Made by a program: the position numbers and the translations under genes
The notes under the pieces: model-generated
Told to the model about the DNA's origin: nothing
The model's input: only the letters and a program-made list of their open reading frames with translations
Databases searched by the model: none
Part shown: piece by piece, positions 1 through 54,809 of the stretch
How the letters are laid out: every line of letters starts with the position of its first letter
Numbering within the stretch: position 1 is the stretch's first letter
From: a virus
Taxonomy: Duplodnaviria > Caudoviricetes
DNA: 64,000 nt
Strand: one strand, 5' to 3'
Virus record (IMG/VR): IMGVR_UViG_3300026549_000039
Span: 1-64,000 of that record

Positions 1-124
1 CTCCCTTGGGCCGTCACTGAGTGAGGGGGCGGCTCCCTTGGGCCGTCACTGAGTGAGGGGGCGGCTCCCTTGGGCCGTCACTGAGTGAGGGGGCGGCTCC
101 CTTGGGCCGTCACTGAGTGAGGGG
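1..124. repeat. 32-bp tandem repeat, about 3.9 copies, running off the window edge
   Basis: CTCCCTTGGGCCGTCACTGAGTGAGGGGGCGG starts at 1, 33 and 65, with a partial copy at 97. Confidence 0.97.
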
Positions 125-129
125 CCACG

Positions 130-212
130 GCGTCACTCAGTGCGTCACTCAGTGCGTCACTCAGTGCGTCACTCAGTGACGTAACTCAGTGATGTAACTC
201 AGTTACATAACT
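130..212. repeat. 12-13-bp tandem repeat GCGTCACTCAGT x4 plus degenerate copies
   Basis: Exact copies at 130, 142, 154, 166, then GACGTAACTCAGT, GATGTAACTCAGT and TACATAACT; the core is the reverse complement of the 32-mer core. Confidence 0.95.
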
Positions 213-247
213 GCTCCCACGTATACATCACGCGGGCGCAGGATATA

Positions 248-284
248 ACGCAATGCGCCTATATATATAGGGGGCGCATTGCGT
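248..284. repeat. Near-perfect palindrome with a (TA)5 centre
   Basis: ACGCAATGCG-CCTATATATATAGG-ggg-CGCATTGCGT. Confidence 0.85.
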
Positions 285-312
285 GCCACATCAGGAAGGG
301 AGGGGGATCGCC

Positions 313-510
313 ATGGACGCGATCCAGGCGCTTCAAAGATTTACCAACATGGCGCGAGACATCCGCGCCTATGAAGCCTCCCTAGGGGATTCACCTACGG
401 AGGATCAGCGGTTGTGGCTGTCGTCTCTGTATTGCCTTCTTCGGGAGGCATGGGACGACGTGAGTTTAGAAATTCCTATGCCCGCGGCCTTTTGGGACCT
501 GCGGACATAG
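313..510 (+). CDS. hypothetical early protein
   Basis: ATG at 313 after GGAGGGGG; first ORF of the co-oriented cassette. Confidence 0.55.
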   Translation: MDAIQALQRFTNMARDIRAYEASLGDSPTEDQRLWLSSLYCLLREAWDDVSLEIPMPAAFWDLRT

Positions 511-588
511 CATAGCACGACAGGGAACAAATCCGCCCATGGCGGGCGGGTAAGAAATCATAAAACAAAATTCGGGAGGACACGTAAC

Positions 589-849
589 ATGAGGATTCAG
601 ATTCAGTACGCGGGCGACGGGTTCATGGGTAAGGTCTACAGCGGCTACAAGGCCAAGAAGGTCCTGCGGGACATCCTGCGTGACACCGAGTTCACCATGG
701 ACGACATCCGCAGCCTCCGCCACGGCCAGGCCCTTGTGAAGCCCGGCCAGGTGGCCGAGGCGCTCTTCTACCGTGGCAGGATGTGGATCTCGGTGTATGA
801 CGACACCGAGATGGGACGCTGGGACCTCTTCACCGTCTACCTCGGGTAG
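589..849 (+). CDS. hypothetical early protein
   Basis: GGAGGA RBS; GC3-biased codons. Confidence 0.8.
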   Translation: MRIQIQYAGDGFMGKVYSGYKAKKVLRDILRDTEFTMDDIRSLRHGQALVKPGQVAEALFYRGRMWISVYDDTEMGRWDLFTVYLG

Positions 850-888
850 ACGGTGAACGTCAACACAACCAAGGAGGAAGCGCATAAC

Positions 889-1239
889 ATGACGACGAAG
901 TTTTCTGAGATTTGCGAGCTCAATATGGACACCATCACGGCGGCGCTGCATCAGGCCGCCCTTGAGGTTGAGGGCGCGGAGGTTGACGGCTACCACGTGG
1001 CCGTCAGCATCGATGCGGAGGGGAACGTCCACACGTTCCCCTGCCCTTACGGGACCATCCCGCCCTCCGTGCGGGATGGGGGCGAGCTGATCATCCGGCG
1101 GTTTGTCTCGGGCGTGGAGTTCGCGCCCGAGGGCTGGGCGGATTCCGTCGATTGGGCGGCGGAGGCCGCCCTGTACATCATGGCGCTCCGCCAGTGGGAG
1201 CGCGAGACGGCGGAGATGGAGGCGGAGGCGGCCTGCTAG
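889..1239 (+). CDS. acidic hypothetical early protein
   Basis: AAGGAGG at 871-877 places the start at ATG 889 rather than 853. Confidence 0.8.
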   Translation: MTTKFSEICELNMDTITAALHQAALEVEGAEVDGYHVAVSIDAEGNVHTFPCPYGTIPPSVRDGGELIIRRFVSGVEFAPEGWADSVDWAAEAALYIMALRQWERETAEMEAEAAC

Positions 1240-1262
1240 GCCGCCACAGTGCAACAAGCGTA

Positions 1263-1332
1263 GGGGTCAGTCCTTCCCCCTCTTCCCTCACAGCAGCAGC
1301 ATAAAAGGGAAGCCTGCCGGAAGGATGACCCC
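1263..1332 (+). promoter_or_regulatory. long intergenic stem-loop, possible RNA processing site
   Basis: Nested pairings GGGGTCA/TGACCCC, TCCTTCC/GGAAGGA, CTTCCCT/AGGGAAG. Confidence 0.55.
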
Positions 1333-1391
1333 ATAAGGGCATGACCCCATAGGCAAAGACCCCCATATGGGGGCAGAAAGGTTGGAGTAGC

Positions 1392-1661
1392 ATGATCGAG
1401 CAGATTAGGAAGACGGTTGTGGAGAATTTCGGCGGCATCTTCAAGAGTGCGGATGAGCATGTGTACCTGCTCATCAAGCGCAATGGTGACATGGCTTGCA
1501 GCTATGACGCCATGCCGGGGACGGCCATCCCCAGCAGCAGGGACCGCTTCTTCAGGCTCCCCGCTGGCCGGGTGAAGAAGAAGACCCGCATGGCCCTGCT
1601 GAAGAGCCACGACTGGCTCTTTGCCCCCTATCTCCTGAAGGAGCTGGGCCTCATCAAGTAG
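1392..1661 (+). CDS. basic hypothetical early protein
   Basis: GGAG RBS; coding-like codon bias. Confidence 0.75.
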   Translation: MIEQIRKTVVENFGGIFKSADEHVYLLIKRNGDMACSYDAMPGTAIPSSRDRFFRLPAGRVKKKTRMALLKSHDWLFAPYLLKELGLIK

Positions 1662-1773
1662 GCCCGGCCCCTTCGGGGGTGACCCCGTGACCCCATGACC
1701 CCGTGACCATCCCAAACCACAGGGGCCACGGGGGTCACCCCATCACAAAGCGCAAGCAGCAAAGCACAATACA

Positions 1774-1830
1774 GGGCGAAACGGGGACAATATGTCCCCG
1801 TCTTGGGGTAAAGCCCCAACTGATGAGCCC
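1774..1830 (+). ncRNA. type II hammerhead ribozyme
   Basis: GGGC-GAAA-CGGGGACA(ATA)TGTCCCCG-TC^-TTGGGG(TAAAG)CCCCAA-CTGATGA-GCCC: full catalytic core, GUC cleavage triplet, three perfect stems. Confidence 0.93.
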
Positions 1831-1848
1831 ATAAGGAGGAATCAACAC

Positions 1849-2259
1849 ATGAGACAGATCATGTTCAAGAAGCCGCGCCAGTTCCGTAAAAGCATGATAG
1901 AGGGGGAGTTGTACAACGTCACCACCGCAGCAGCATCAGACGTTGAGTATGCCCTGCTGTTTACTGGCAAGCAGGGCAGCAATGACCCCAGCAACGAGGA
2001 CGAGGGCGAGGCCCTTGTCTTCAGGAAAGTATCCACGGGGCAGGACATCATTGTCCCCATCAACGAGCCGGGGTTGACCATCGAGTGGGAGTATACCCGC
2101 TCCCCTCAGTCGGAGCCACTCCCCAATGACCCCATGACTGCGGTGGACCTCGCGAGGCTATACGTGAAATACAGCCTCGCCCCAAAGAACAAGACCCCGC
2201 GTGAGGTTGCGCGGGACGTTCAACAGGGATGGCGTCCCTTCCCCGTGGAGGGGCGCTAG
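1849..2259 (+). CDS. hypothetical early protein downstream of the hammerhead
   Basis: AAGGAGG at 1833-1839 and ATG at 1849; the track start 1792 lies inside the ribozyme. Confidence 0.8.
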   Translation: MRQIMFKKPRQFRKSMIEGELYNVTTAAASDVEYALLFTGKQGSNDPSNEDEGEALVFRKVSTGQDIIVPINEPGLTIEWEYTRSPQSEPLPNDPMTAVDLARLYVKYSLAPKNKTPREVARDVQQGWRPFPVEGR

Positions 2260-2302
2260 TCGGGGGCAATGACCCCCACAAAAACACAAGGAGGAAACCA
2301 AA

Positions 2303-2710
2303 ATGGCAAAGAAAGACATGAAGGATAGGGCTCACGGCAATATAGACAAGGCGAGGGAAAAGGTCCAGGTCGCCATAATCCTTGACCCCAATGGGGTCAA
2401 GGTGGGCAGCGTTGTTCACCGCTGGACCTACCCCGCGACGGGGGGTGTTTGCCACACCAGCTTCAAGCTGATGAGCAACAGCAACTACGACCTTGACCCC
2501 GTGGTCCACTACTCCGAATCTGGGGGGTGCGGCTATGACAAGGCAGCCAATAACCTCTGCTGGGTCTTCTTGGATAAGCAGCCCCAAATTGAGGCCATAA
2601 CAGGCCGCCCCTATCCCAAAGACCCCGACGGGGGATTGACCTGCTACCTGGCCAACCACTGGAGGAGTTACTTGGAGGACGCGGGCTACCGCGTCATTGA
2701 CGCCCTGTAG
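2303..2710 (+). CDS. hypothetical phage protein (GGxGYDK motif), paralogue of 3150-3638
   Basis: AAGGAGG RBS; shares V.IILDP and Y.VI.AL with 3150-3638. Confidence 0.85.
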   Translation: MAKKDMKDRAHGNIDKAREKVQVAIILDPNGVKVGSVVHRWTYPATGGVCHTSFKLMSNSNYDLDPVVHYSESGGCGYDKAANNLCWVFLDKQPQIEAITGRPYPKDPDGGLTCYLANHWRSYLEDAGYRVIDAL

Positions 2711-2730
2711 AGGGCGTCAAAGAAAGGAGA

Positions 2731-3117
2731 ATGACCCCTATGATTAGGTACGTCTACGCACATATCGACACCACTTCCTCCCTAGCGGACACCCCGCTAG
2801 GGGGGGCCATGGTCAACGCCGCTTGGAACCATGGCGAGGCGTTTGTGAGGGGCCTGCTTGAGAAGCATGGCCCCGCAGAGTTTAAGGCCAAATGGGAGGG
2901 CCATGACCCCTGGACGTTCAGGGAGGAAATGTACATCAGAACGGAAGTCATGACCCCCCTCTGGCCCCTGTTGGACCTCCTCGAAGAAGCAGAGGAGGAA
3001 AACGCAGGGGAATTGAGGGCCGACATCATGGAGGCGCTGGAGAAAAGTCTGTGGCTTGCCTACACGGAGGCCATGGACACGGTAGGGGGCGACTATTGGG
3101 GCAAAGACCCCGACTAG
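2731..3117 (+). CDS. acidic hypothetical early protein
   Basis: AAAGGAG RBS; alternative in-frame start at 2740. Confidence 0.8.
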   Translation: MTPMIRYVYAHIDTTSSLADTPLGGAMVNAAWNHGEAFVRGLLEKHGPAEFKAKWEGHDPWTFREEMYIRTEVMTPLWPLLDLLEEAEEENAGELRADIMEALEKSLWLAYTEAMDTVGGDYWGKDPD

Positions 3118-3149
3118 CGCCCCCTATGACGTAAGGAGGAAGAGCAGAT

Positions 3150-3638
3150 ATGTCAGCAACATTCCGGTTGGACGCAAGGGTCAGCGATATCAAAGACCCT
3201 GTAGAGGCAGTCGAGGAGTACATCCTCGACACAAGGAAGAAAGTGCGGGTGTTCATTATCCTTGACCCCGCACTCCAGATAGCAGGGCGCATTGTCCAGT
3301 CCTGGGAGATGATACCCTGGACAGTCGGGCACCCAAGCGCCCCGGAAGTTCACCCCGGCGACTTCATGCCAATTCGGGGATGCATGGCCCGCGCAAGCGT
3401 AGAGCTTGACGTAGTGGGCCATGACCCCATCAACGTGACCGTGGAGGTCTGGGACAACCCCAAAGACCCCACGGACACGGCGCTGATGTACGCACTATTG
3501 GAGGCCCGTCAGGGTATCGAGGCCATAACAAACATGGCCTTCCCTGATCGGGATGACCCCCAGAGCTGGGATGAAATCCGCGCCCAATGGGTGGAGTGGT
3601 TCGAGGGCGCGGAATACAGCGTGATTGAGGCCCTCTAA
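3150..3638 (+). CDS. hypothetical phage protein, paralogue of 2303-2710
   Basis: AAGGAGG RBS; shared motifs and shared downstream junction sequence. Confidence 0.85.
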   Translation: MSATFRLDARVSDIKDPVEAVEEYILDTRKKVRVFIILDPALQIAGRIVQSWEMIPWTVGHPSAPEVHPGDFMPIRGCMARASVELDVVGHDPINVTVEVWDNPKDPTDTALMYALLEARQGIEAITNMAFPDRDDPQSWDEIRAQWVEWFEGAEYSVIEAL

Positions 3639-3668
3639 AGGGCCTCAAAGAAAGGAGAATGACCCCCT

Positions 3669-4244
3669 ATGAAGAAGGACACTGACAGCATTATTCGCAT
3701 TATTCGCGAGCAGTTCCACGAAGTCCCCACGAGGGATTACGCCGCGCCCACAAAGGAGACCCTGTATGCAGAGCAGTGGGCGAGCATCAAGCGGACCTGT
3801 GAGACCCTCGCCTATCTCTACGATGGAGATTTGTACGTGGGCGACATGATCACGGAGGCCGCTGTGGATGCAGCCCCCATCGACAACCGGGAGATCATGC
3901 GGGCCTATGAGGATGTGGAGCCGTTCGTGGCCGAAGTCCTGGCCGACGGCTACGACCTTGACCCCAAGAGTTTCAGGATCCCGCAGCTTGTACAGGCGGG
4001 GTATGTGCGCTTCTTGGAGGCGGCGGCCTATGAGAATCTTCAGACGATTTTCTTCAACAGGTTCGCGGCCTGCGCAAATGCTGACCCCGCCTTGACCGGG
4101 GAAGACCCCGACGATGACCCCCCGGTGGACCTGATGAAGCTGGAGGCCGCCCTTGAGGCGGCGGCGGAAAAGGTAGACAATAACATGACCTTCGCGGAGG
4201 CCGATGCAATCTACCGCGAGGCCGTGAAGGGCTTCAAGGCGTAG
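3669..4244 (+). CDS. acidic protein, possible Ocr-like DNA-mimic antirestriction protein
   Basis: GDMITEAAVDAAPI...QLVQA...YENL recalls T7 Ocr HDAIHMAADNAVP...ILQARIYEQL; D/E-rich. ORF is solid, function tentative. Confidence 0.5.
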   Translation: MKKDTDSIIRIIREQFHEVPTRDYAAPTKETLYAEQWASIKRTCETLAYLYDGDLYVGDMITEAAVDAAPIDNREIMRAYEDVEPFVAEVLADGYDLDPKSFRIPQLVQAGYVRFLEAAAYENLQTIFFNRFAACANADPALTGEDPDDDPPVDLMKLEAALEAAAEKVDNNMTFAEADAIYREAVKGFKA

Positions 4245-4279
4245 GGGATGACCCCCTACGCCTATAACACGAAAGGAGA

Positions 4280-4930
4280 ATGCAAGAGATGATCGAGATA
4301 GCGAGAGCAGTTGACCCCAAGATCGGGTATGTAGAGGTGTGCGCAGAAGATTACGCATACGAGAATCCTATGAAGGACTGGGATCACGTCCCTGACATTA
4401 TGCTGATACACCGCTATAGAGGGCTCGCGACCCTGGACGATGACCCCAGAGACTACAGTATCAGGGAGCTAAGTGAGCGCTACGGGCGGGATGGGGGCCT
4501 TGCACTCCCCGTGTACGCCTATGACCACAGCGGGGTATCATTCGCCGTTAGCGACGGCTACCCCTACAATGACCCCTGGGACGCCGGGATTGCTGGCATT
4601 GCCTACGTCAGCCCTGAGAAAGCAAGGGCAACGTGGGGAGAAACCCTGACCCCGCAAGAGCTCAGGGAGAAATGCAGGGACAGCATAGAGAGCCTTGTGG
4701 CTCTGATGAACGCTGTGGCCGACAATGAGTGCTACTTCGTGACGTGGTATGACACGGAGTGCAACCCCGTAGATAGCTGCGGGGGATTCTGGAAGACAGA
4801 CAGATACAGCTACGAGGAAATGTTCCGCGATATGGCAGACATGGCCCCAGCAGAGTATCAGCCCCTCTTTGAACGCCTTGAGGCGTGGAAGATTGACCCC
4901 ATCAAGGTGAGCAGGAAGCTCATAGACTAG
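4280..4930 (+). CDS. conserved phage/mobile-element hypothetical protein
   Basis: LPVYAYDHSG...DPWDAG motif recalled from phage/ICE proteins; AAAGGAG RBS. Confidence 0.75.
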   Translation: MQEMIEIARAVDPKIGYVEVCAEDYAYENPMKDWDHVPDIMLIHRYRGLATLDDDPRDYSIRELSERYGRDGGLALPVYAYDHSGVSFAVSDGYPYNDPWDAGIAGIAYVSPEKARATWGETLTPQELREKCRDSIESLVALMNAVADNECYFVTWYDTECNPVDSCGGFWKTDRYSYEEMFRDMADMAPAEYQPLFERLEAWKIDPIKVSRKLID

Positions 4931-4943
4931 GAGGATAACCCCC

Positions 4944-5150
4944 ATGGTAAAAGGTCGGAAATATTATCTACGCGTTCTCACGCCTTACGGCATGGAGCGC
5001 ATAGCGGGGCGCTACGTGGGTAACAACTCACGTGGCGTCCTTCGTTTCTGTGACCCCGATGATGACAGCATCGAGTATGAGGTCAACGATTGCTGTATCT
5101 TCGGGGTCAGGACGGCCATATGGCCGCAACATCTGGTCATAGGAGGATGA
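4944..5150 (+). CDS. small hypothetical protein
   Basis: AGGAGG RBS; fills the gap between neighbours. Confidence 0.7.
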   Translation: MVKGRKYYLRVLTPYGMERIAGRYVGNNSRGVLRFCDPDDDSIEYEVNDCCIFGVRTAIWPQHLVIGG

Positions 5151-5155
5151 CCCCC

Positions 5156-5590
5156 ATGAGCGATCTATATGGCGGCAAGGTAGCCAGCGCTTGGACAAAG
5201 CTGGCTAAGGGTGTATCGGTCTATGTGGGATTTGTGACCCCATGTGGGCGTGTGCCCCTGGAAGTCCTCCGGGTGCAGATTAACCACAAGACACGCAAGG
5301 ACGGGACACAGGAACACGAGGCGTTCATCCTGTTGACCCCGAAAAACGGTAGGAACGTAAACGTCACAGGATGGGGCGCGGGCGAGACTGAGACATTGGC
5401 GCTAGTCGGAGCTGTGGAGGCGCTGTGGGCCTCCATGAAGGGCAACAACTACCCAGAGATGCCCCTGTTCATGCACTACGACAGGGAGCAGTATAGTGTC
5501 TATGCGCTCTGCGAAGAGCTGAGCGCAGGCAACAGGGATCAGGCCCTGTTGAGGATGAACGGTAGCATTGTATGCTATCAAGCTGTATAG
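5156..5590 (+). CDS. hypothetical protein, possible distant paralogue of 2303/3150
   Basis: AGGAGG-ATGACCCCC-ATG start context. Confidence 0.75.
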   Translation: MSDLYGGKVASAWTKLAKGVSVYVGFVTPCGRVPLEVLRVQINHKTRKDGTQEHEAFILLTPKNGRNVNVTGWGAGETETLALVGAVEALWASMKGNNYPEMPLFMHYDREQYSVYALCEELSAGNRDQALLRMNGSIVCYQAV

Positions 5591-5619
5591 AACGGGCGAA
5601 CATAAGGAGGATGACCCCC

Positions 5620-5955
5620 ATGAAAGGCAACGGAATCAAGGCAAAGACCCCGGTAGAAAAGCCGGACGTAATCAAGGTCCTGAGCGCAGAACAGCTAGAG
5701 CAGGTCAGGGAGTACTTCAGGTGGGAGTTCAGGGAGACAGAGCTGAGGGGAGCCTTGGACTCCCTGATTGACCTCAAACGCGGCAGCGGGGAGGAGCAGG
5801 ATGCGTCCATGATCGAGGACGCACAGGAGATAATCGTGGAGACACTCCTGCCTGAGACGGAGGAATGGGAGGAGAACATCTACAACTACTGCGCTAACAG
5901 GCAAATCTCCTTCCTTGACGAGATTGACGCACGGCTGAAGGGGTGGATCCTGTGA
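5620..5955 (+). CDS. acidic hypothetical protein
   Basis: AAGGAGG-ATGACCCCC-ATG start context. Confidence 0.8.
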   Translation: MKGNGIKAKTPVEKPDVIKVLSAEQLEQVREYFRWEFRETELRGALDSLIDLKRGSGEEQDASMIEDAQEIIVETLLPETEEWEENIYNYCANRQISFLDEIDARLKGWIL

Positions 5956-6064
5956 GGATGACCCCCTGCGCAGCAATTAGGTTGTTGTGCGCTATGCACA
6001 ACGTAGAGCTAATCGAGCAAATCTTGCATATTGCCATTGAGCTGGCAGAAAGGATCGGTTAATC

Positions 6065-44478: not shown

Positions 44479-47400
44479 GTGGTATCTATGCCGGGTTATC
44501 AGCGTCAGAGGATATGGGACGAAAGACCTCTAACTGACGAAATAAAAGCAAGCATCCTGGCGAAGCCAGATGCACACATTATAGCATCCTCAACCTCCAA
44601 TGCTCAGTTTGAGCCTTGCTGTCTGGTAGTGGTGGATCATTCCTACCCGCTGATAGGAGTACTGTCTGTAACTGTCAAACGAAGCAGGAATACTGAGAGT
44701 AACACAGCATCTATTTCTCTGCTTAATACTGGTGTTCGCTATTCTGGTCCTAACAAACAGAAGATATCAGCGAACACGCCCATATCTATTTATATGGGCT
44801 ACTCGAAACGCTACATCCAGAGGTTTGAGGGGTATATAGACTCTACCTCTATGTCTACAACAGGGGACGGGTCTACCATACAGATTGAGTGCAGGGACAG
44901 AGCTAAGGACCTGATTGAGAATGAAATATCTTGTGGCATATACTCGGACAAATCTGAATATCTAGGCGAAGGCGACTGGCATTTCCAGATGGGATATGAC
45001 CGGTTCTCTACTCAGATGAACCCAGAACCTAGAGCCTGGAAAGTATCTGATGTTCTTAGGGATGTTTGCTATGTACTTGGGCTTAGGGATATTGTTCCTT
45101 TTATACATATAGAAGAGAACTACAACACGGTTACAGGATTTACTACCTACGACCGTGTAGTTACCTATGGGCCTGAGTACGTGTTAGACATTGACCCAGA
45201 GTGGGATAAGGAGATCGTTTGCAACTTCGTGGAAGAGAACGCCCTCGATGTGATAGCTCAGCTTGCTCAGAGTATCTGCCATGAAGCCTTCTTTGACCAG
45301 CTGGGCCGTCTTGTCGTGCGTAAGGTTCAAACAGCAGCCGACCCATCCGTCTTCTATTATAAGGAAGAAAGGGATATTGAGTCCCTAACCAATAAGGTAG
45401 ACGATGATAATGTTTCTAATATTATAACCATCACAGGACAGACCGCTGATGAAACAGCTGTCATCTACCCGTTCGGCGCTGTGGCTGTTACGGATAATGT
45501 ATCTCTTGAGAAGGGCCAGGATAAGTATGGCTGGACTATGACATACCCCAAGATTGTCGGCCCAGAGAACATTAACACTCTGAAGCACCCATCTCTCTAT
45601 GCCCACACCATGGCCCCTGGTGCTGAACCTGTTACGGACTACCATGACAACCCAGAGAACGGACCGTCTTACGACGTGAGGATACACTATCCTAACTTCG
45701 CTCAGCCTTATGAAAAGCAGCTGTGCCTTGAGGCCACCTGCCCTATTATCACGGACGAGGCGGCCAAAGCCAACACCAATAACCTTAGAACATGGGGCTA
45801 TCATGGTGAAGTAGATAGTGCTGTTTCATATGAGAACCAGCCCATCATGCTGGAGGACAGATTCCGTAAACCGCTGTTGGTGGTATGTAAAGAGCGGTCT
45901 ATGGATGACGATCTAATAAAGGCCTGTGATGCTACAGTCAGTAACCCAGAGGCTAAAGATGATCCAGATGAGGATGCTGATCCAGTACCGATGCCGTCTG
46001 TCCTGGACCACATTACCTATTCGGTAGACGGTGGTACTATCTACGACTACAATACGGATCCTAACTACCCGTCCAACCCATTACCTACGCCTAATTATGG
46101 TGGACTGCCTACCCCCGGTGTAGCAAACTCCTACTATCTAGTAGGTACAAAGGACGTAGACAGCTTACCTTCTGACGCAACAGCATTTGTGCCTAAAGGT
46201 TTGACAGCGGCAGACTTCCAAGGTAAAGGTAAAGAAATAACGCAGTTTTCTGTGGTGCAGGGTGTGTCACCCTGGGCATCTCTGCCTAACTACATATATG
46301 ATATGGCATCCATGTCCACACTTACGCCATACATAGCCATGGTGAAGGTAAAGCGTAAGATCAAAACTAAGATGTATCAGGACCCAACAAATCCTGCTGT
46401 CACGTATCGGGCTGTTGAGAATCTTATCGATCCTACTGCTTACGATGAGATCGAAGTGATCCCGTTTGACCTGAATCCACAGAACCTGTACGTGAACTGC
46501 CAGGTTGTTGACAACCAGATTGAGTCTATGTATACACCTTGGCGAGATCTACCAAGTGGAGCTATAGACATGGGTGGAGATCAGGTTGAAGAGATAGAAT
46601 ACCCGTTGATCTATCATAACCCATTGGCTGGTTTGACAGGTACACAACCGAACTATTTGCTGGCTCCCATCTCTGATGACTGGATGGATACCATTACCAG
46701 CATCAAGGATAGCTGTGGCAAGTCTATGGAAGTATTCATAACCAAGATAGACCCTAGGTATGTGTCTAACAGTGACCCAGATGTAAACTGTGTCTACTGG
46801 AAATGGCGTGGCACCTACAAGAAGGACCCAACAAAATCGGACAGAGGCGTCGTTGTTCAAACCGACATGGGTGCTGATGCCAATGGCAACCCAAAGGTCA
46901 GCATAAAGAAGGACGAGTTCTACAGGCTGGCCGCTGATCCTAATACTGTAGTTATTGAATGCACAACAGCTGGTATTGACCATAAGTCCTGGGCAGAGGT
47001 AGTAGAGCTGAACGAGTACAACATCATCTGCAAGGGGCATAACCAGTATGGCAGTATGAAAGACTCTTGGGAAAAATTTATTAAGGAACTGGAAAAGATA
47101 CTTACTCTGATTGGAGCAGCTCTGGTAATTATAGGTATAGCATTCTTATGTATGCCATTTGGAGGAGCAGCAGCCTCTGGAGTGGCACAAGGTGGTATTG
47201 CACCTGTTACAGCAGCACTAGCAATACTATTGGGTGTATTCCTAATACTGCTTGACCTCGACGATAACATAGGGGCTAATATCTCTAAGGTAATGGAAGA
47301 TATGTCCTGCCGTCTGACGGGTGTGCGCCGACCTGAGATCGAACTCTGGCATAACTCTTCTAAGGCAGCACAGTGGTATATCAGGGATCAATCTAATCAG

Positions 47401-50193
47401 GTGGCAGGGAGTATGGCTGCTGATACCACAGCTACACCTCCTAGTCCGTTTGGTGTACCTGATGGCTACTTTGGGTATGAAGAGGGGTCCACGCTTAATA
47501 CTATATACCAACCGAATAATCAGGAGAGCGTGGCCTCGACTGGTCTGTCTAGGGCTTACACCTGGGTGTTCCTTATGGACCTGACCAAAGCTGGTTCGTC
47601 TGGGCCTGCTCTTTGGCCCAATGGCCCTTGGGTCACTGCTGTCGGCTGGGAGACACCCGAGGTTGGAGACCGCAGACCTATTGAGTACTACACTCAAAAG
47701 GACTACGACGGTAACGAGTTGGAGAAGAAGGAGATCATTACCCGGTTCGCTATTGAAGCCTTCGGTGATGATACCAGGGACCCGATCTACACCGCTGAGG
47801 AGCTGGTTGGCCTTAGATTCGAGAACAATACAGACATAGGCATCGTTCCTGGAACTGCTGAGACCTGGTACAACTCTACTGGTTATGAACTTCTGGTTGA
47901 TAGGTCTATGAATGAAATGGCCGTCTCAGACAACGGGTTCTGGTTTGATTTCTTTGAAAAGAAAGATAACTTTGTTGACCGCAGGTACAAGTACATCGCC
48001 TTGGTTATCTATTCTTGGAGAGTGAAAACCTACAATCCTGACGGCACACTCAAGGATGATACCGAGTACATAACAAGAGGTAGTACACCTGACCCGAAGG
48101 TAATATTTGCTCACACTGATGCTGGTGAGCCTTGCCGCTGGGGCCTGTTTGTTCCTCGTGGATTGAACCCACAACACTATAACCGCTGGAGATGGCTAGA
48201 ACAGGATACTTTAGGTAATGACAAAGAAGAGCAAAACTACACACACGTAAGCATACTGTGGGCAGGTCAGGAGAAGCTGATTGCTAACCTGATCAACAAC
48301 TTTAAGTACTCAGCGGTACAGCTGGACTTCAGAGTATGGGGCAAGGCTTATGGTACGTTTGCGCCTACTATTGTGTACTACTCCGAAGCCAATCTTCTCT
48401 CTTGGGGATCCTATGGGAACAGGGAGCTGTCTTTGAATAACAACTGCATCAACGACTTCAAAACAGCTCGTAAGCTGGCTAACATGCTTACAGCCCAGTC
48501 CAATGAGACGTACAACATGGTGACCACTGGCAAACCGTATGTCTTTGAGGGCGATGTAGTCATGGTGAAAGAGGAGACATCAGGATCAATAGCCGGTATG
48601 TTCAGAAACTGGGAGAACATATGGAAGGATCCCGAGAGGAAGAACTGTGTCGATCCTGGCAACCAGCTCACCTTCAGAAGTATACCTGGAGTATACCAGC
48701 CTCAGTACTCTACACCCACCTACGGTAATAATACCTTGGTGGCATGTAGTGACGGGACCAGGAACACATACTTGGTGGAGATTGATAAAGCATACAATCC
48801 CATCTGGTATGCCATAGACACAGCCAACACTAGACCAGTGTTCTGTATGCGCTGGGAAGGTGTTGGTGGACAGTATAATGCAAATGTAGCGACACATACC
48901 CTGGCTGGACTAGCTGACGGATCATTCATCCAGATTGATTACACCATAGCCAATCTGGTAAACAGCCTCACCCTACCTGCTGTGCCCACCTGTGGTACCA
49001 TGGATGAGGAACAGCTTTGGGTCTTTGTTGGTTCTGACACTGGCGTGTACGGCATCAACCTGGCGACATTCACGGTTGATATCATAGATAACTCAGGAGG
49101 ATGTACTGGTATATCAGCAGCCCAGTGGAAGGTTTATGATCCCATACTAGAGGAGGAAGCCTACCGAGAGTACGGCGTGCTGTTTACCGTAGGTTCGGGT
49201 GGAATCACATGCAGGCAGTTGTACCAGGATAGGAACCGCACTGCAATAGGGCCAGTATTGGCTACCTATACAGGCAACCTACCATTTGATGAGCCTGGAA
49301 CACTTGAGTATGACAAGAGCCTTGGTGAGCTGATCTACGTACACAAGGCACAACCTAACAAGGCAGCGTCCATACACAGCATAAAGGTTGAGGTGGAGAT
49401 TGACCCTTCGTATCCTGACGCTGGTTTCGACGTTGAGTTTATAGGCGAGCTGTGGAAGATTGACTATATGGATGACGGCGAGCTGATAGCTACATTCCCC
49501 AATACAGCAGACCGTACAGCTTACATCAATCAGTTCTTCAGGCCAGTTCATGCTATCTATGATGTAAACAAAGACCTGCTGATTACTGATGAGCACAACA
49601 ACAGGGTGTACAAAGTTAATCCTAGTGGTAAGTTCTACATTACATCTATCACTGATAACTTTGACATTGGAGACAACGCTGTTACCTATAAGCAGCAGGT
49701 AGAAATGGTAACAGTGGCTGCCGCTGGGTCACTTCAGCTCACAAACTTTGGTAAGAACTTCCTCAATACCAAGACAGACCAGCAGATAACAGCTGCCATG
49801 AACACTGGTATGGGAAGAATCATCAGTGAGCTGGGTAGAGACAAGTACCTGTGCAAGCTGCTAACATCAGCAACCGTAGTCGAGGCCATCAACAACTCTG
49901 CACAGGCTCTTAGGGTGCGCGACACTGTTATAATCATGTTTGGCTTCAATGGCGATATGTCCGGCGTTGGTACAATCATAGCTAAGAAGGCATTGAATGA
50001 CTGGCTGGTTGAGACTGGTGATCCCTATGTGTACACCGATGCTACGTCCATTGATGTAACAAAATATGGACAGGCGGCTACGGAGACAACATCAGGAGGC
50101 AGCACGGCAGACCTCACAGTGTATAATTCTAGGATACGCACCATAGAGAACAGGCTGAAGACACTTGCTGGCCTGCATGGATTGAGGTGGTAG
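44479..50193 (+). CDS. baseplate hub/tail-tip protein (gp27-like) with a large insertion and C-terminal OB-like domain
   Basis: ISIYMGY..FEGYID..IECRD; FFDQLGRLVV; NIITITG...YGNREL...ARKLA; internal double hydrophobic helix. Confidence 0.75.
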   Translation: MVSMPGYQRQRIWDERPLTDEIKASILAKPDAHIIASSTSNAQFEPCCLVVVDHSYPLIGVLSVTVKRSRNTESNTASISLLNTGVRYSGPNKQKISANTPISIYMGYSKRYIQRFEGYIDSTSMSTTGDGSTIQIECRDRAKDLIENEISCGIYSDKSEYLGEGDWHFQMGYDRFSTQMNPEPRAWKVSDVLRDVCYVLGLRDIVPFIHIEENYNTVTGFTTYDRVVTYGPEYVLDIDPEWDKEIVCNFVEENALDVIAQLAQSICHEAFFDQLGRLVVRKVQTAADPSVFYYKEERDIESLTNKVDDDNVSNIITITGQTADETAVIYPFGAVAVTDNVSLEKGQDKYGWTMTYPKIVGPENINTLKHPSLYAHTMAPGAEPVTDYHDNPENGPSYDVRIHYPNFAQPYEKQLCLEATCPIITDEAAKANTNNLRTWGYHGEVDSAVSYENQPIMLEDRFRKPLLVVCKERSMDDDLIKACDATVSNPEAKDDPDEDADPVPMPSVLDHITYSVDGGTIYDYNTDPNYPSNPLPTPNYGGLPTPGVANSYYLVGTKDVDSLPSDATAFVPKGLTAADFQGKGKEITQFSVVQGVSPWASLPNYIYDMASMSTLTPYIAMVKVKRKIKTKMYQDPTNPAVTYRAVENLIDPTAYDEIEVIPFDLNPQNLYVNCQVVDNQIESMYTPWRDLPSGAIDMGGDQVEEIEYPLIYHNPLAGLTGTQPNYLLAPISDDWMDTITSIKDSCGKSMEVFITKIDPRYVSNSDPDVNCVYWKWRGTYKKDPTKSDRGVVVQTDMGADANGNPKVSIKKDEFYRLAADPNTVVIECTTAGIDHKSWAEVVELNEYNIICKGHNQYGSMKDSWEKFIKELEKILTLIGAALVIIGIAFLCMPFGGAAASGVAQGGIAPVTAALAILLGVFLILLDLDDNIGANISKVMEDMSCRLTGVRRPEIELWHNSSKAAQWYIRDQSNQVAGSMAADTTATPPSPFGVPDGYFGYEEGSTLNTIYQPNNQESVASTGLSRAYTWVFLMDLTKAGSSGPALWPNGPWVTAVGWETPEVGDRRPIEYYTQKDYDGNELEKKEIITRFAIEAFGDDTRDPIYTAEELVGLRFENNTDIGIVPGTAETWYNSTGYELLVDRSMNEMAVSDNGFWFDFFEKKDNFVDRRYKYIALVIYSWRVKTYNPDGTLKDDTEYITRGSTPDPKVIFAHTDAGEPCRWGLFVPRGLNPQHYNRWRWLEQDTLGNDKEEQNYTHVSILWAGQEKLIANLINNFKYSAVQLDFRVWGKAYGTFAPTIVYYSEANLLSWGSYGNRELSLNNNCINDFKTARKLANMLTAQSNETYNMVTTGKPYVFEGDVVMVKEETSGSIAGMFRNWENIWKDPERKNCVDPGNQLTFRSIPGVYQPQYSTPTYGNNTLVACSDGTRNTYLVEIDKAYNPIWYAIDTANTRPVFCMRWEGVGGQYNANVATHTLAGLADGSFIQIDYTIANLVNSLTLPAVPTCGTMDEEQLWVFVGSDTGVYGINLATFTVDIIDNSGGCTGISAAQWKVYDPILEEEAYREYGVLFTVGSGGITCRQLYQDRNRTAIGPVLATYTGNLPFDEPGTLEYDKSLGELIYVHKAQPNKAASIHSIKVEVEIDPSYPDAGFDVEFIGELWKIDYMDDGELIATFPNTADRTAYINQFFRPVHAIYDVNKDLLITDEHNNRVYKVNPSGKFYITSITDNFDIGDNAVTYKQQVEMVTVAAAGSLQLTNFGKNFLNTKTDQQITAAMNTGMGRIISELGRDKYLCKLLTSATVVEAINNSAQALRVRDTVIIMFGFNGDMSGVGTIIAKKALNDWLVETGDPYVYTDATSIDVTKYGQAATETTSGGSTADLTVYNSRIRTIENRLKTLAGLHGLRW

Positions 50194-50196
50194 GAA

Positions 50197-51246
50197 GTGT
50201 ATTACAACAAATACTTACGTAAACCAGATGTACCTGGTGCATCACGATGCTCATTTACATTTGATGCTAATGCAGACCTGCTCACTCGGGATGATAACTA
50301 CCGAGGTAAGAAACGGTATAGGTTCAACAAATGGCAACCTATATCTGAAGCGTTTCCCAAGCCCTCTTCGGGGGGCTTGATATTTAATCCTAATCAGGAG
50401 CATCCACTAGCTGGCATCATATCAGCATGGCATATCAACCCAGCGGATGAGGGCTATGTGGATTTCCTGATTAGCCCCATAACGGTTAATAAGTTTGATG
50501 CAGCCGCTGGGGATGCAATAGAGGTTGGGGTTGGGTTCCTTAAATACATATCGGACTACTGGGCTCTGGTACAGGGTTGCGAGTTTGTGTGCAGGCGTAG
50601 GTCAATGCTACCCAGCGCACAGCGTCAATACTATACGATTGGGAACAACGAGATACCATTTACTCAGCAGGTGTTCAACCCAGATAACTATGCCAGCTTT
50701 CAGCTCAGGTACGACGTGACCGGGATGGATATAGTCTATACAGAGTATGACGCAACTGGTACAGCGTTATCTTCTGATGCTACCCACCTGGATTATGATA
50801 ATACGGTAGGAAACCTATACAGGCCTGTACTATACTTCTATGCTAATGGAGATTGCAATTTTGAGTGCAGCTTGATTAGAAGCAAGATAGAGTTCCCAAT
50901 GCTAAGGTTGGCACATAGTGAGACCATATGGTTCCTAGAGAATCCCAGCACTTATGTACCACCTGTGGCTCCTATCAGGGACCCTGGTAATCATATGTAC
51001 TACCAACCAACCAAAGCTATGATAGAGGACGCTACGATTAGGGTAGCCAATAACTGGTGCAGCCACGAATGGTTACGCACCATAGACTACCTTATATCCG
51101 CTGGATTGGAAACATTTATATTTACAGATCCAGATGGTAGACGCTTTAGATGCTGCTTTGAGGATCTACAGGCTAATACAGCTAGATTGACTGGCACCAA
51201 GGGTGTGGGGTATGAACTTACCATGCCCGTTATGGTTTTACATTAG
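50197..51246 (+). CDS. putative tail/baseplate protein
   Basis: GAGGTGG RBS; operon position. Confidence 0.7.
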   Translation: MYYNKYLRKPDVPGASRCSFTFDANADLLTRDDNYRGKKRYRFNKWQPISEAFPKPSSGGLIFNPNQEHPLAGIISAWHINPADEGYVDFLISPITVNKFDAAAGDAIEVGVGFLKYISDYWALVQGCEFVCRRRSMLPSAQRQYYTIGNNEIPFTQQVFNPDNYASFQLRYDVTGMDIVYTEYDATGTALSSDATHLDYDNTVGNLYRPVLYFYANGDCNFECSLIRSKIEFPMLRLAHSETIWFLENPSTYVPPVAPIRDPGNHMYYQPTKAMIEDATIRVANNWCSHEWLRTIDYLISAGLETFIFTDPDGRRFRCCFEDLQANTARLTGTKGVGYELTMPVMVLH

Positions 51247-51249
51247 GAG

Positions 51250-53487
51250 GTGTTGGGTGTGCCTGTAACAAAGGTAGACAATGTAGATTATCAAAATAAT
51301 ATCCCAATAGATAATATTGTGCGCGGCGTACAATTTCACAACCAGTCTATAGGGCTAGATGCTGGGAGCTGGTGGTGGCTAGTACCAAAAGGATCCAGAA
51401 ACATTCAATTCTATACACCGTTTGCTAGTAGCCTACCGGGTGGTGACCAGTATATTAAGCTGCCTAAAAGTCCAACTATAAAGTTAGAAGATGTCGCTTC
51501 GACTCCTGGTACCGTTACCATACCACGCTCCAACATACAATTTACTTTCACAGGTAATAATACTTGGCACTGTTGGGGTGTTTATGGTGTACCTGATACT
51601 GACTTCTACTGGTTGAACCATTCTGGGCCTGGGGGCCAGCCATGGCCAACCTCTGTTCCGATTCCTGAAGCAGACGTTGTTGCTTATGGATTTGGGTACT
51701 GCCCTCTACATAACGCGAGTATACAAGTTTTTCATATGGATGGAGCACAATTAGTAGGTACACCATTTACAGGATTCAATGAGGATTGGGTTTGGGAACA
51801 GGGTGATAACTTTATTGGTAACCCATCCGACCCAGCTGATTGGGTCAAATATCACAAAACTAGTATATGGTCTAGGATACTAGGATCAGCATTACGATCT
51901 GCTAATGCCTACAACGGAAACGCTGTTCTTCCAAATAACACCAGCTTTGAAGTAGGTATGGTGGTGCCTGTGCAAGAATTGACAGACTTCTTGCGTCTAA
52001 TAAACCCGTCTTTGTTTACATCTACGTTTACATTTGACGACTCGAAAACAAATGGGTTTGGTGGAGAGCTGATAAAACATGATGATGTTAATTTCTATAA
52101 GATTCTTGTTAATGGTGAAGAAATATACTGGACTGGTAATAATGCAGGGGTATGTTGTAATAGCATAAACAGGTCGCAGTACGAAAACCTATTTTGGGGT
52201 ATAAATGGATACTACGCACCTCACACCACTACCGATGCTTTAGCAATCAAACAAGTATCAGCCCCATTTGAAATGTTATATATCCCTGAAGCTCAAGACG
52301 ATCTGATTATAGGAATGATAACATCTCATACTGGTTTCGTATATGGGCAATGGGAAGATGCCTCCGACCCACTAGATCCGTTTCTACCACCTTACATTGA
52401 GCCTCCAGAGCCTCCTAAGCCTCCTGAGCCTCCAAAGCCTGTACCCGTTCCGGCTAAGTGTGACAGACCTAGAGTGTATGCAGTATCAACACCCTCCTCC
52501 TCACAGTCACACTTTGGTTTATCATCATGTGTGGATGAGCACCTTGTGGGTCCAACTTTGGTATCGATGGCATCTAAAAGGTGCAAGTGTGGTCGTATGA
52601 TGCCTAGCAAGATACCGGCTATACGAACCACTACAGGCAACAAAGTAGAGCTCAAGGATTTCAACACATCCACTGTAATGCCTGAAATCCATTATATTCC
52701 AAAGGGGTCAAAGAATATAAAGTTTACTGGCACACCCGCCTGCCTAGTGGACTGTGTAGTGGTGCCCCAAGTATTCCATTTGGATGGTAAGCTGCTTGTT
52801 GGATCACCTGTGATACAGGATCCTAGAGTTTCTAATCGTAACTACAATGGATCAAATGTATGGGGCTTTGTTACAGGCGCAACAGCATCACCTGACCCAA
52901 GACCCGTGCAGGACATAAAGGACGCTGTTACACAGTATGTAAAGACAAATGCTCCTGCCAGGTACACCAGGAGCTTTGTATTTGATGATTCACAGGTCAA
53001 CGGCACAGGTGCCTTCATGGCCTACTCCACTTCAATGTATACCGTTACGGTGGCTGGAGAAACTATACAGTGGAATGGTGATCAGCTTGACACTTGGCCT
53101 GGGCGGGGCGATTCCCTTCAGGACAACATCGTCAATATCTCTACGTGGCTGTCTAACTTCGGCACTAACCCTGATTATGATCCACCAGCAGCAATAAAGT
53201 GCAAGCTGAGTATAGATGAGGCCAAGGACGACCTGTTCATAATGATGATTGGTACATGCTGGCATGTGTATGTCGCTTCCTGGGATTTACCATCCTCTGA
53301 TCCCCCAGAGCCTCCAGAGCCTCCTGAACCACCCGAGCCTCCAGAGCCTCCTGAACCTCCAGAGCCCCCCGAACCACCAGAGCCTCCTGAACCCCCAGAG
53401 CCTGTACCTGTTCCAGCTACGTGTGCCAGGCCTAGGATGTGGCAAAAACGAGAAGCTAACGAAGGTAAACACCATTTTGGAATATAG
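51250..53487 (+). CDS. protein with two copies of an unrecognised repeated domain and PEP linkers
   Basis: PKGS.NI.F...QVFH.DG...GE.I.W.G...I.EA.DDL occurs twice. Confidence 0.85.
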   Translation: MLGVPVTKVDNVDYQNNIPIDNIVRGVQFHNQSIGLDAGSWWWLVPKGSRNIQFYTPFASSLPGGDQYIKLPKSPTIKLEDVASTPGTVTIPRSNIQFTFTGNNTWHCWGVYGVPDTDFYWLNHSGPGGQPWPTSVPIPEADVVAYGFGYCPLHNASIQVFHMDGAQLVGTPFTGFNEDWVWEQGDNFIGNPSDPADWVKYHKTSIWSRILGSALRSANAYNGNAVLPNNTSFEVGMVVPVQELTDFLRLINPSLFTSTFTFDDSKTNGFGGELIKHDDVNFYKILVNGEEIYWTGNNAGVCCNSINRSQYENLFWGINGYYAPHTTTDALAIKQVSAPFEMLYIPEAQDDLIIGMITSHTGFVYGQWEDASDPLDPFLPPYIEPPEPPKPPEPPKPVPVPAKCDRPRVYAVSTPSSSQSHFGLSSCVDEHLVGPTLVSMASKRCKCGRMMPSKIPAIRTTTGNKVELKDFNTSTVMPEIHYIPKGSKNIKFTGTPACLVDCVVVPQVFHLDGKLLVGSPVIQDPRVSNRNYNGSNVWGFVTGATASPDPRPVQDIKDAVTQYVKTNAPARYTRSFVFDDSQVNGTGAFMAYSTSMYTVTVAGETIQWNGDQLDTWPGRGDSLQDNIVNISTWLSNFGTNPDYDPPAAIKCKLSIDEAKDDLFIMMIGTCWHVYVASWDLPSSDPPEPPEPPEPPEPPEPPEPPEPPEPPEPPEPPEPVPVPATCARPRMWQKREANEGKHHFGI
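53303..53403 (+). repeat. degenerate 9-bp coding repeat, (PPE) about x11
   Basis: CCNCCNGAR tandem units. Confidence 0.9.
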
Positions 53488-53500
53488 GTGGTGAGCAGAG

Positions 53501-54796
53501 GTGGCTTTAATTAAACAATCTTGGTCCTCTCTAAAGCAGCTTGGTACACCGAGTATTCCGTATGGATTCTCAGATTTTGTGACTGTACCAAAAGGGGCCA
53601 AATATATACACTTTGAAATAGCTTATGGAGAAGGGTCGAGTAGTATAGTTGACCAGCTTATTCAGATAGACCAAGATATACAACTAGAAGTTATACAGGA
53701 CGCTATAAATGGGCGTCTGCCGTTTGATACTTCTGACCCCAACTACATGCAGCTTATTGAGGAGGAAACCCAACGTAGAGTGGATGCTGATCCACGAGCA
53801 ATAGACCTGTACAATCAATGGGACGGGCGAATTTATCCTATTGGTGGTATTGTGGACAACCTTGTAGGTTTTCCCGACCTCAAAAATGGATGGACTACCC
53901 TAGTACATCGTCTAGGTATGGGTGTCAACTGCGCCTTTAATACTGTACCTATAGCAACAGTTATATCAATGTGTTTTGACCATAGTTGTTCATTACAGGT
54001 ATTTCATCCAGATGGTACTCTGTTGGTTGGATCCCCTCTACACCAGCGGGACTGGTGTAGAGGGGAGCCGTATGGTGATTCATCTGGCCCGTCTGCATTG
54101 AGATGGCCTGCTGGTATAGAGTATGATAAGAGTGGGCAATGGGCTGAGTGGTACAGTTGGGCTACCGCAGGTTTGATAGCTATGGCTACTGATGGTAATC
54201 TAAACAATATAGTGCGGTATTTTCCATCGAGAGGCACCATTGCCACACCATCAGATATAACTGATGTGTTAAAAACAAAGCACCCAACTGTATTTTTACC
54301 GTCTTTCCAATTTAACGATTCACAAGTTAATGGGAATCGGAAAGTACTTGTAAAGATGGACGATACAACCTTCTACAACTTGACAGTGGACGGCGAGCAG
54401 ATATCCTGGACAGGAGACCCTACAGCAGATGCCCCGCTTCTTTTTCCTCATCAAATGTTAGCACTAGGTTTATATCCGTCTCTAGTCATTCATCCAACTG
54501 ATCCGCCAGATGTAGCCTCAGCAATGAATAATATGACCAGGGAGAAGATAAGATCAAGGCCCTTCCAATCTCTGGATATCGAACAAGCTACAGAGGATTT
54601 AATAATCGGTACTGTCTCATGTGACATGGGAACTGTTTATGGAGAATGGTATATCGATGACGGGACACCAGAGCCCCCTCCATGGCCCCCTGAACCCCCA
54701 GAGCCCGCACCTGTACCTGTTCCAGCTAGGTGTGACAGGCCTAGGATGTGGCGGAAACGTGATGCTAATGAAAACAAACAACATTTTGGATTATAG
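53501..54796 (+). CDS. protein with one copy of the repeated domain and a CxRPR...HFG tail
   Basis: Same motifs; GGTGGTGA RBS. Confidence 0.85.
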   Translation: MALIKQSWSSLKQLGTPSIPYGFSDFVTVPKGAKYIHFEIAYGEGSSSIVDQLIQIDQDIQLEVIQDAINGRLPFDTSDPNYMQLIEEETQRRVDADPRAIDLYNQWDGRIYPIGGIVDNLVGFPDLKNGWTTLVHRLGMGVNCAFNTVPIATVISMCFDHSCSLQVFHPDGTLLVGSPLHQRDWCRGEPYGDSSGPSALRWPAGIEYDKSGQWAEWYSWATAGLIAMATDGNLNNIVRYFPSRGTIATPSDITDVLKTKHPTVFLPSFQFNDSQVNGNRKVLVKMDDTTFYNLTVDGEQISWTGDPTADAPLLFPHQMLALGLYPSLVIHPTDPPDVASAMNNMTREKIRSRPFQSLDIEQATEDLIIGTVSCDMGTVYGEWYIDDGTPEPPPWPPEPPEPAPVPVPARCDRPRMWRKRDANENKQHFGL

Positions 54797-54809
54797 GTGG
54801 TGAAGCAGT

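Follow-up and report, generated by a model that had tools for sequence, protein, structure and literature searches.

A pseudoknot-free type II hammerhead ribozyme ahead of a small early gene in an uncultured gut phage and its relatives

Type II hammerhead ribozymes (Rfam RF02276) have been known since 2011 from the gaps between co-directional phage genes (PMC3088659). Members clustered in prophages cleave both in vitro and in E. coli, and were proposed to process long phage transcripts; in such clusters, which flank single genes, for example around ardA in Agrobacterium tumefaciens, the ribozymes sit in consecutive gaps of an operon with anti-restriction-type genes, ardA being noted downstream of hammerheads (PMC3088659, Fig. 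3). In the haloviruses HF1 and HF2, a variant hammerhead lies 13 nt upstream of the start codon of an early helicase gene, and its cleavage site is no more than 3 nt away from a mapped 5′ end (PMC3088659). In D. vulgaris, three hammerheads of type II were found active in vivo (PMC8782182), and a 2019 review described the purpose as still undefined (PMC6765202). A pseudoknot between loop I and the 3′ tail is present in the majority of type II members, not in all, and most need it for fast cleavage at low Mg2+ (PMC3088659).

We analyzed a stretch of 64,000 nt (the window), which is the first 64 kb of the 146,263-bp record of an uncultured gut phage in IMG/VR. It carries, on the + strand between two co-directional genes, a complete type II hammerhead with the same core, the same permutation, the same G10.1-C11.1 and A15.1-U16.1 pairs and the same GUC triplet as the described family. 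In contrast to the RF02276 model, it is without the loop I/3′-tail pseudoknot, has a loop I of only 3–5 nt and scores below the gathering threshold. As in ardA-type clusters, a gene for an Ocr-like candidate lies near the ribozyme, and in relatives two copies flank one gene; unlike those clusters, the window genome has a single copy, and the genes on either side belong to no known family. With HF1 and HF2 it shares the location in the early region of a linear double-stranded DNA phage immediately before a start codon, here at a distance of 19 nt. The halovirus ribozyme has an atypical core insertion and a mapped 5′ end, whereas the ribozyme of the window has a canonical core.

RiboJ, a synthetic part engineered from a satellite-RNA hammerhead with a different topology, is placed before ribosome-binding sites. 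In insulators of this type, cleavage removes the upstream context and leaves a defined 5′ UTR led by a hairpin; the likeness to the present locus would be one of function only, by analogy. We conclude that the locus is a clean further example of a known layout and not a new kind of system. What it adds is modestly new: a subtype that scores below the Rfam threshold, a presence/absence series at three sites within one clade, and numbers for the coupling of hammerheads to stop and start codons.

Anatomy, fold and genomic setting

The hammerhead spans 57 nt (1774–1830), with stems of 4 bp (II), 9 bp (III) and 6–7 bp (I) (Table 1). Its elements follow the order stem II strand, GAAA (1778–1781), stem III hairpin, C17, stem I hairpin, CUGAUGA, stem II strand, which fits the type II circular permutation: both ends lie in stem II, and stems I and III are closed by loops. 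The catalytic core reads C3 U4 G5 A6 N7 G8 A9 and G12 A13 A14, with a non-G at position 17; the three helices meet at this core, with the A15.1-U16.1 pair closing stem III, and the preferred G10.1-C11.1 pair is present as well. The GUC triplet occupies 1800–1802, and the scissile bond is predicted between C1802 and U1803. Hammerhead cleavage produces a 5′-OH and a 2′,3′-cyclic phosphate. On re-reading the sequence, all positions given in an earlier note for the ribozyme, the AAGGAGG and the ATG proved correct, and sequence, conservation and covariation all support the claim that the + strand carries a complete type II hammerhead.

Table 1. Features at the ribozyme locus and hammerhead copies in relatives; positions are those of the window unless a locus is named
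Feature	Position	Strand	Remark
Upstream gene, 89 aa	1392-1661	+	Without known family (Pfam/PHROG)
Intergenic spacer	1662-1773	+	UUCG-loop hairpin, long TGACCCC hairpin, A/C-rich linker (from sequence and fold)
Stem II, 5′-side strand GGGC	1774-1777	+	Pairs with 1827-1830; open end of the type II topology
Core GAA (G12 A13 A14)	1778-1780	+	Unchanged in 13/13 distinct copies
Stem III hairpin, 9 bp including A15.1-U16.1	1781-1801	+	Loop AUA at 1790-1792
C17, cleavage-site nucleotide	1802	+	Hammerhead consensus (GUC, H17 = C); invariant among copies
Stem I hairpin, 6-7 bp	1803-1819	+	Loop UAAAG/AAA
Core CUGAUGA (C3 to A9)	1820-1826	+	Invariant save free position 7
Stem II, 3′-side strand GCCC	1827-1830	+	Pairs with 1774-1777
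Shine-Dalgarno AAGGAGG of the downstream gene	1833-1839	+	Formed at the junction of a 34-nt deletion
Downstream gene, 136-aa conserved protein	1849-2259	+	21 homologues, 67-100% identity; without known family
Ocr-like anti-restriction candidate, 191 aa	3669-4244		PHROG 2568, E = 1e-6
Hammerhead copies in relatives	L001:2866-2926, 3440-3498; L016:1202-1264, 1769-1825; L005:70-132, 607-663; L008:800-856		

RNAfold was applied to the ribozyme with and without its surroundings. For 1765–1840, the minimum free energy structure and the centroid are both the three-way hammerhead junction (−31.5 kcal/mol; z = −4.2), and none of 200 shuffles folded equally well. The fold is kept in a 196-nt context with 120 nt added upstream. 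When coding sequence is included (1760–1890), RNAfold no longer pairs the stem II 5′ strand with 1827–1830 but draws it into the ORF, to a GC-rich stretch near 1874; this predicted competing fold would matter only if folding were not co-transcriptional.

A descriptor scan of the whole genome returned this single site, with stems of 4/9/7 bp, and neither the scan nor further searches of the 146 kb found a second hammerhead. Across 300 dinucleotide-preserving shuffles of the genome, the best total was 15 bp, compared with 20 bp at the real site, and stems of at least 3/5/5 bp occurred in only 2 of the 300. With looser settings (stems of 2/3/3 bp or more), the descriptor matched 0.46 times per shuffled genome.

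The Rfam model Hammerhead_II (RF02276) aligns to 1774–1834 over its full length (model positions 1–66 of 66; E-value 3.8e-4 on a 301-nt stretch), with a score of 29.1 bits, below the gathering value of 37. Searching the whole window at the gathering score, the first 16 kb by E-value and the phage's own genome with RF02276 each failed to list the ribozyme; routine annotation would therefore miss it. The score is probably below threshold because the usual loop I/tail pseudoknot is absent. The model expects a loop I of 10 nt and a pairing 3′ tail. No such pseudoknot of at least 4 bp is present in the window copy: between loop I and the 14-nt tail, the longest contiguous complementarity is 2 nt here and in the other copies of the same subtype (A, below), and 4 nt in the sister subtype B of relatives.

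The 112 nt between the end of the upstream gene and the ribozyme contain, at about 1676–1745, a long hairpin formed from three TGACCCC repeats and an inverted copy. This heptamer occurs 61 times in the window, where 10.8 occurrences are expected, nearly all on the + strand between 1263 and 14763. It is found inside ORFs and directly before Shine-Dalgarno sequences alike, and in relatives also in loop I, the 5′ flank or stem III of subtype B hammerheads. Since it occurs regardless of coding, TGACCCC suggests a polar signal at the DNA level. The complement of the heptamer is G-rich and belongs to the strand that has its 3′ end at the left edge of the contig, as a Chi-like site would require; we mention this only as an idea. 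Small ORFs that overlap the ribozyme (1703–1834 on the + strand, 1628–1819 on the − strand, and an extension of the downstream gene from an ATG at 1792) were rejected as coding, because there are length differences of 4 and 6 nt between copies of the ribozyme and all homologues of the downstream protein start at the ATG equivalent to 1849.

The ribozyme belongs to a 14-kb block of + strand genes and is 1.8 kb away from the left end of the contig. This early, anti-defence-type block consists mostly of small genes without known families and also includes the Ocr-like candidate, a helicase and a DNA ligase. The Ocr-like gene lies 1.8 kb downstream of the ribozyme, and a Pfam search with its 191-aa product gave no match. 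Counterparts of the 89-aa upstream protein in relatives have 86–88 aa and are likewise encoded upstream. For the 136-aa downstream protein, Pfam and PHROG searches returned no family; its homologues (n = 21) all begin M[RK]Q, and their alignment has 65 invariant columns. An AF2 model (pLDDT 72) predicts six strands and two helices and matched no PDB fold at E ≤ 0.001. No sigma-70-like promoter was found on the + strand of positions 1–4000, and no other Rfam family or tRNA was found across the whole 146 kb.

Megablast of positions 1–6000 against cultured phage genomes gave no match, and tblastn with the helicase gave only matches below 30% identity to cultured phages; IMG/VR scans with the 136-aa protein, the helicase and the exact ribozyme pattern returned no relatives. 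By these sequence comparisons, the phage is very distant from cultured phages. Further along the window (44479–63175) runs a series of very large + strand ORFs (1904, 1385 and 1402 aa) with almost no family matches; the 1904-aa ORF matches a tail-protein PHROG over a 110-aa stretch, and the 1402-aa ORF matches a PHROG of unknown function (7388).

Conservation and covariation at three intergenic sites

Relatives were drawn from a protein database, in which the 136-aa protein has 20 metagenomic homologues (67–93% identity), and 17 contigs encoding homologues were examined. A hammerhead lies upstream of the gene at 15 of these 17 loci, and a 16th ends just upstream of the gene. The copies fall into two subtypes: subtype A resembles the window copy, and in subtype B the outer pair of stem II is A-U, stems I and III differ and loop I reads UAUGAC. 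A covariance model (R1) built from the copies upstream of the 136-aa gene picked up more copies in these relatives at two nearby intergenic sites, one following the 136-aa gene (L001–L003, L008, L009 and L016) and the other before the preceding 88-aa gene (L005, L010 and L012). Relatives thus have either one hammerhead or two, drawn from two subtypes and placed at any of three alternative gaps between genes. Two copies stand at neighbouring gaps in L001–L003, L005, L010, L012 and L016, with the 136-aa gene flanked by both in L001–L003 and L016. At each of the three sites the ribozyme is present in some close relatives and absent from others, which implies that any single copy is dispensable; the window genome has one copy only.

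In 13 distinct copies, all 228 base-pair cells hold standard pairs. Compensatory double changes occur at five pairs, at least one in each helix: the outer pair of stem II, which is A-U instead of G-C in 5 of the 13, two pairs in stem III and two in stem I. The covariation values were reached by no column shuffle and by no slid register, and an alignment of 8 sequences gave the same picture. The double changes trace to few events, namely the split between subtypes A and B and one change in L016; the number of covariation events is small, although the pattern is clean.

Variation was also counted in ten subtype A copies, with each column marked as flank, loop, stem or core. Variable columns numbered 22 of 24 in the flanks, 5 of 8 in the loops, 2 of 36 in the stems and 0 of 13 in the marked core. 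Both stem changes are from A to G and give G.U pairs, which are tolerated only on the + strand, indicating that the RNA is that of the + strand. Position 7, free in the consensus, is U, and C in one further copy (L001:3440-3498, CUGACGA). Copies are 57, 59, 61, 63 or 64 nt long, which excludes a conserved reading frame. We conclude, as judged from these patterns of variation, that the ribozyme is a selected, structured + strand RNA with a hammerhead core.

Distance to the ribosome-binding site

The earlier note had placed the ribozyme just before the ribosome-binding site of an early gene. The positions are exact (stem II ends 2 nt from the Shine-Dalgarno sequence, and the ATG at 1849 lies 19 nt after stem II), but the closeness stems from a 34-nt deletion. 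In relatives, the Shine-Dalgarno sequence is 35–65 nt and the start codon 49–77 nt from stem II. Compared with the closest relative (L013), the window genome has lost 34 nt between two short AGGA repeats (window 1831–1838, L013:1048-1099). The deletion took out the usual spacer, including CATGACCCC, and joined the 3′ tail of the ribozyme to the Shine-Dalgarno sequence. Among the 15 loci compared, only the window genome has it; a DNA-type contig from another sample (X4) carries the undeleted spacer. The deletion is not an assembly slip, because an RNA-library contig that matches 1824–2075 at 100% identity spans the junction.

To see which spacing is usual in phages at large, a pattern scan of IMG/VR for type II hammerheads with a GGC/GCC stem II, which returned 100 stretches, was used as a survey of 96–97 distinct, well-formed sites, with random positions in the same loci as the control. 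In 79% of cases, no more than 30 nt separate the start of the hammerhead from the preceding stop codon of an ORF on the same strand, compared with 12% of random positions. A Shine-Dalgarno sequence and a start codon (ORF of at least 50 aa) follow stem II within 40 nt in 73%, compared with 5%, and the distance from stem II to the start has its mode at 20–30 nt. We conclude that phage type II hammerheads typically occupy the gap between two cistrons, directly before the ribosome-binding site, and that the spacing in the window is the common one, arrived at by a secondary route. These figures put numbers on a layout known in the literature only by example. Two of the IMG/VR contigs (L090 and L097) carry five type II hammerheads each within about 4 kb; these are gene-by-gene punctuation arrays, unrelated to the window phage.

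The RNA data are assembled contigs from two metatranscriptome runs of one bovine-gut sample, which show neither RNA ends nor strand nor level. Upstream contigs, 100% identical to the window, cover 1399/1440–1723 at depths of 12.5 and 31, and the next contig is the one that starts at 1824 (depth 5.4). No RNA-library contig bridges 1724–1823, and DNA-type contigs of related strains cross the ribozyme. The upstream contigs end at 1723, whereas simple cleavage would predict an end at 1802. The contig end at 1723 lies inside the long TGACCCC hairpin and is followed directly by Illumina adapter in one run, which suggests a discrete RNA end at this position. The gap between contigs is compatible with processing in the spacer; as uncovered stretches prove nothing, we take it as a weak hint.

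Proposed role, alternatives and meaning

We consider it probable that the hammerhead is active and processes the message of two co-directional small early genes into parts that are separately stable and separately translated. As + strand RNA is synthesized, the three helices would fold, and the 2′-OH of C1802 would attack its own 3′ phosphate. The products, joined solely by the 4-bp stem II, would then separate. The upstream RNA, with the 89-aa gene, would end in the 9-bp GC-rich stem III hairpin followed by UC with a 2′,3′-cyclic phosphate, and the downstream RNA would start with a 5′-OH where the stem I hairpin begins, leaving 30 nt to the Shine-Dalgarno sequence of the 136-aa gene. In the predicted fold of this 3′ product, 13 unpaired nucleotides separate the stem I hairpin from the Shine-Dalgarno sequence. 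Each of the two message parts would gain independent stability and translation, with a terminal hairpin on each, and the ribosome-binding site would gain a fixed leader, the ribozyme acting like a natural insulator before it. Terminal hairpins and non-phosphorylated ends affect bacterial exonucleases and 5′-end-dependent decay. A polycistronic precursor is assumed because no promoter or terminator was identified; we infer this precursor, cleavage in vivo and the effects on stability and translation. The proposal of the earlier note, that polycistronic early RNA processes itself into a hairpin-led mRNA without host RNases, is plausible, and the same hypothesis was put forward for clustered prophage hammerheads by Perreault et al. 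2011 (PMC3088659).

An unlikely alternative is that the hammerhead cleaves mainly as a passenger in a portable leader module (hammerhead, GC hairpin, TGACCCC and Shine-Dalgarno sequence) that spreads between intergenic sites by recombination or marks cassette boundaries, the flanking genes gaining little or nothing in stability or translation. The same two subtypes recur at three sites, where the sequence on the 5′ side differs and the leader is homologous up to the Shine-Dalgarno sequence; among phages with 67–93% identity in the neighbouring protein, a given site may or may not hold the ribozyme, and the window genome has lost the leader spacer through its deletion. However, the conserved core and the compensatory changes show selection on the fold, which would also be expected if cleavage served the spread of the module. 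How closely hammerheads of unrelated phages are tied to stop and start codons points to a role in expression.

We give somewhat less credence to the window copy being a slow or inactive minimal hammerhead, further damaged by the 34-nt deletion and a relic on its way out. The missing loop I/tail pseudoknot, the Rfam score under threshold, the competing RNAfold structure, in which stem II loses its 5′ strand to the coding region, and the lack of a hammerhead at the other intergenic sites of the genome are consistent with this, and disruption of the tertiary contact cut the rate 20- to >100-fold in a model type II hammerhead (PMC3088659). Nevertheless, many natural hammerheads have no recognisable tertiary contacts (PMC3088659), the ten pseudoknot-free subtype A copies keep core and stems while their flanks diverge, and the deletion left all 57 nt of the ribozyme untouched.

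A translational switch, in which the Shine-Dalgarno sequence is masked in uncut RNA by an upstream anti-Shine-Dalgarno sequence or by the adjacent junction and freed by cleavage, is very improbable. CCUUC at 1670–1674 pairs with GGAGG at 1835–1839 in the 196-nt fold, and only 2 nt separate stem II from the Shine-Dalgarno sequence. But CCUUC belongs to the competing UUCG-loop hairpin and is missing or different in L001, L014, L015 and L016, which all still have the ribozyme; in addition, the Shine-Dalgarno sequence of relatives stands well away from stem II (35 nt or more). As it is not conserved in relatives, the anti-Shine-Dalgarno pairing was rejected. Still more improbable is the excision by two ribozymes of a gene-length RNA with 5′-OH and 2′,3′-cyclic phosphate ends, to be circularised or spliced by an RtcB-type ligase. 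This possibility was raised earlier (PMC3088659), and the 136-aa gene of four relatives does lie between two hammerheads; the window genome, however, has one hammerhead and no other Rfam ribozyme in 146 kb, and Perreault et al. sought such products and found none (PMC3088659). Chance resemblance, with ordinary intergenic hairpins beside short core-like words, could appeal to the loose-descriptor matches in shuffled genomes and to the Rfam score below gathering, but is excluded by covariation, genome shuffles and the pattern of column variation: no shuffle came near 20 bp, and an invariant core with covarying helices recurs in 13 copies with divergent flanks.

Processing of the message between the two early genes is the reading we retain. 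More tentatively, the type II hammerheads of phages may make up half of a portable cassette, the other half being a ribosome-binding leader, an idea that we regard as possible rather than likely. It is based on the two subtypes, each with a homologous leader ending in a Shine-Dalgarno sequence, at three sites; in unrelated IMG/VR phages, about three-quarters of hammerheads fit between a stop codon (at most 30 nt upstream) and a start codon (13–41 nt downstream).

The locus adds a well-supported, covarying, pseudoknot-free hammerhead subtype that standard Rfam annotation overlooks. The presence/absence series at shared sites is a natural experiment on whether phage hammerheads set mRNA boundaries and leader structure, and makes testable an idea that has stood unproven since 2011. 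If the cassette idea is general, each early gene would receive a standard, context-free, hairpin-led leader with a 5′-OH, a natural insulator, and the conserved cassettes would also be recombination joints for the shuffling of early and anti-defence genes.
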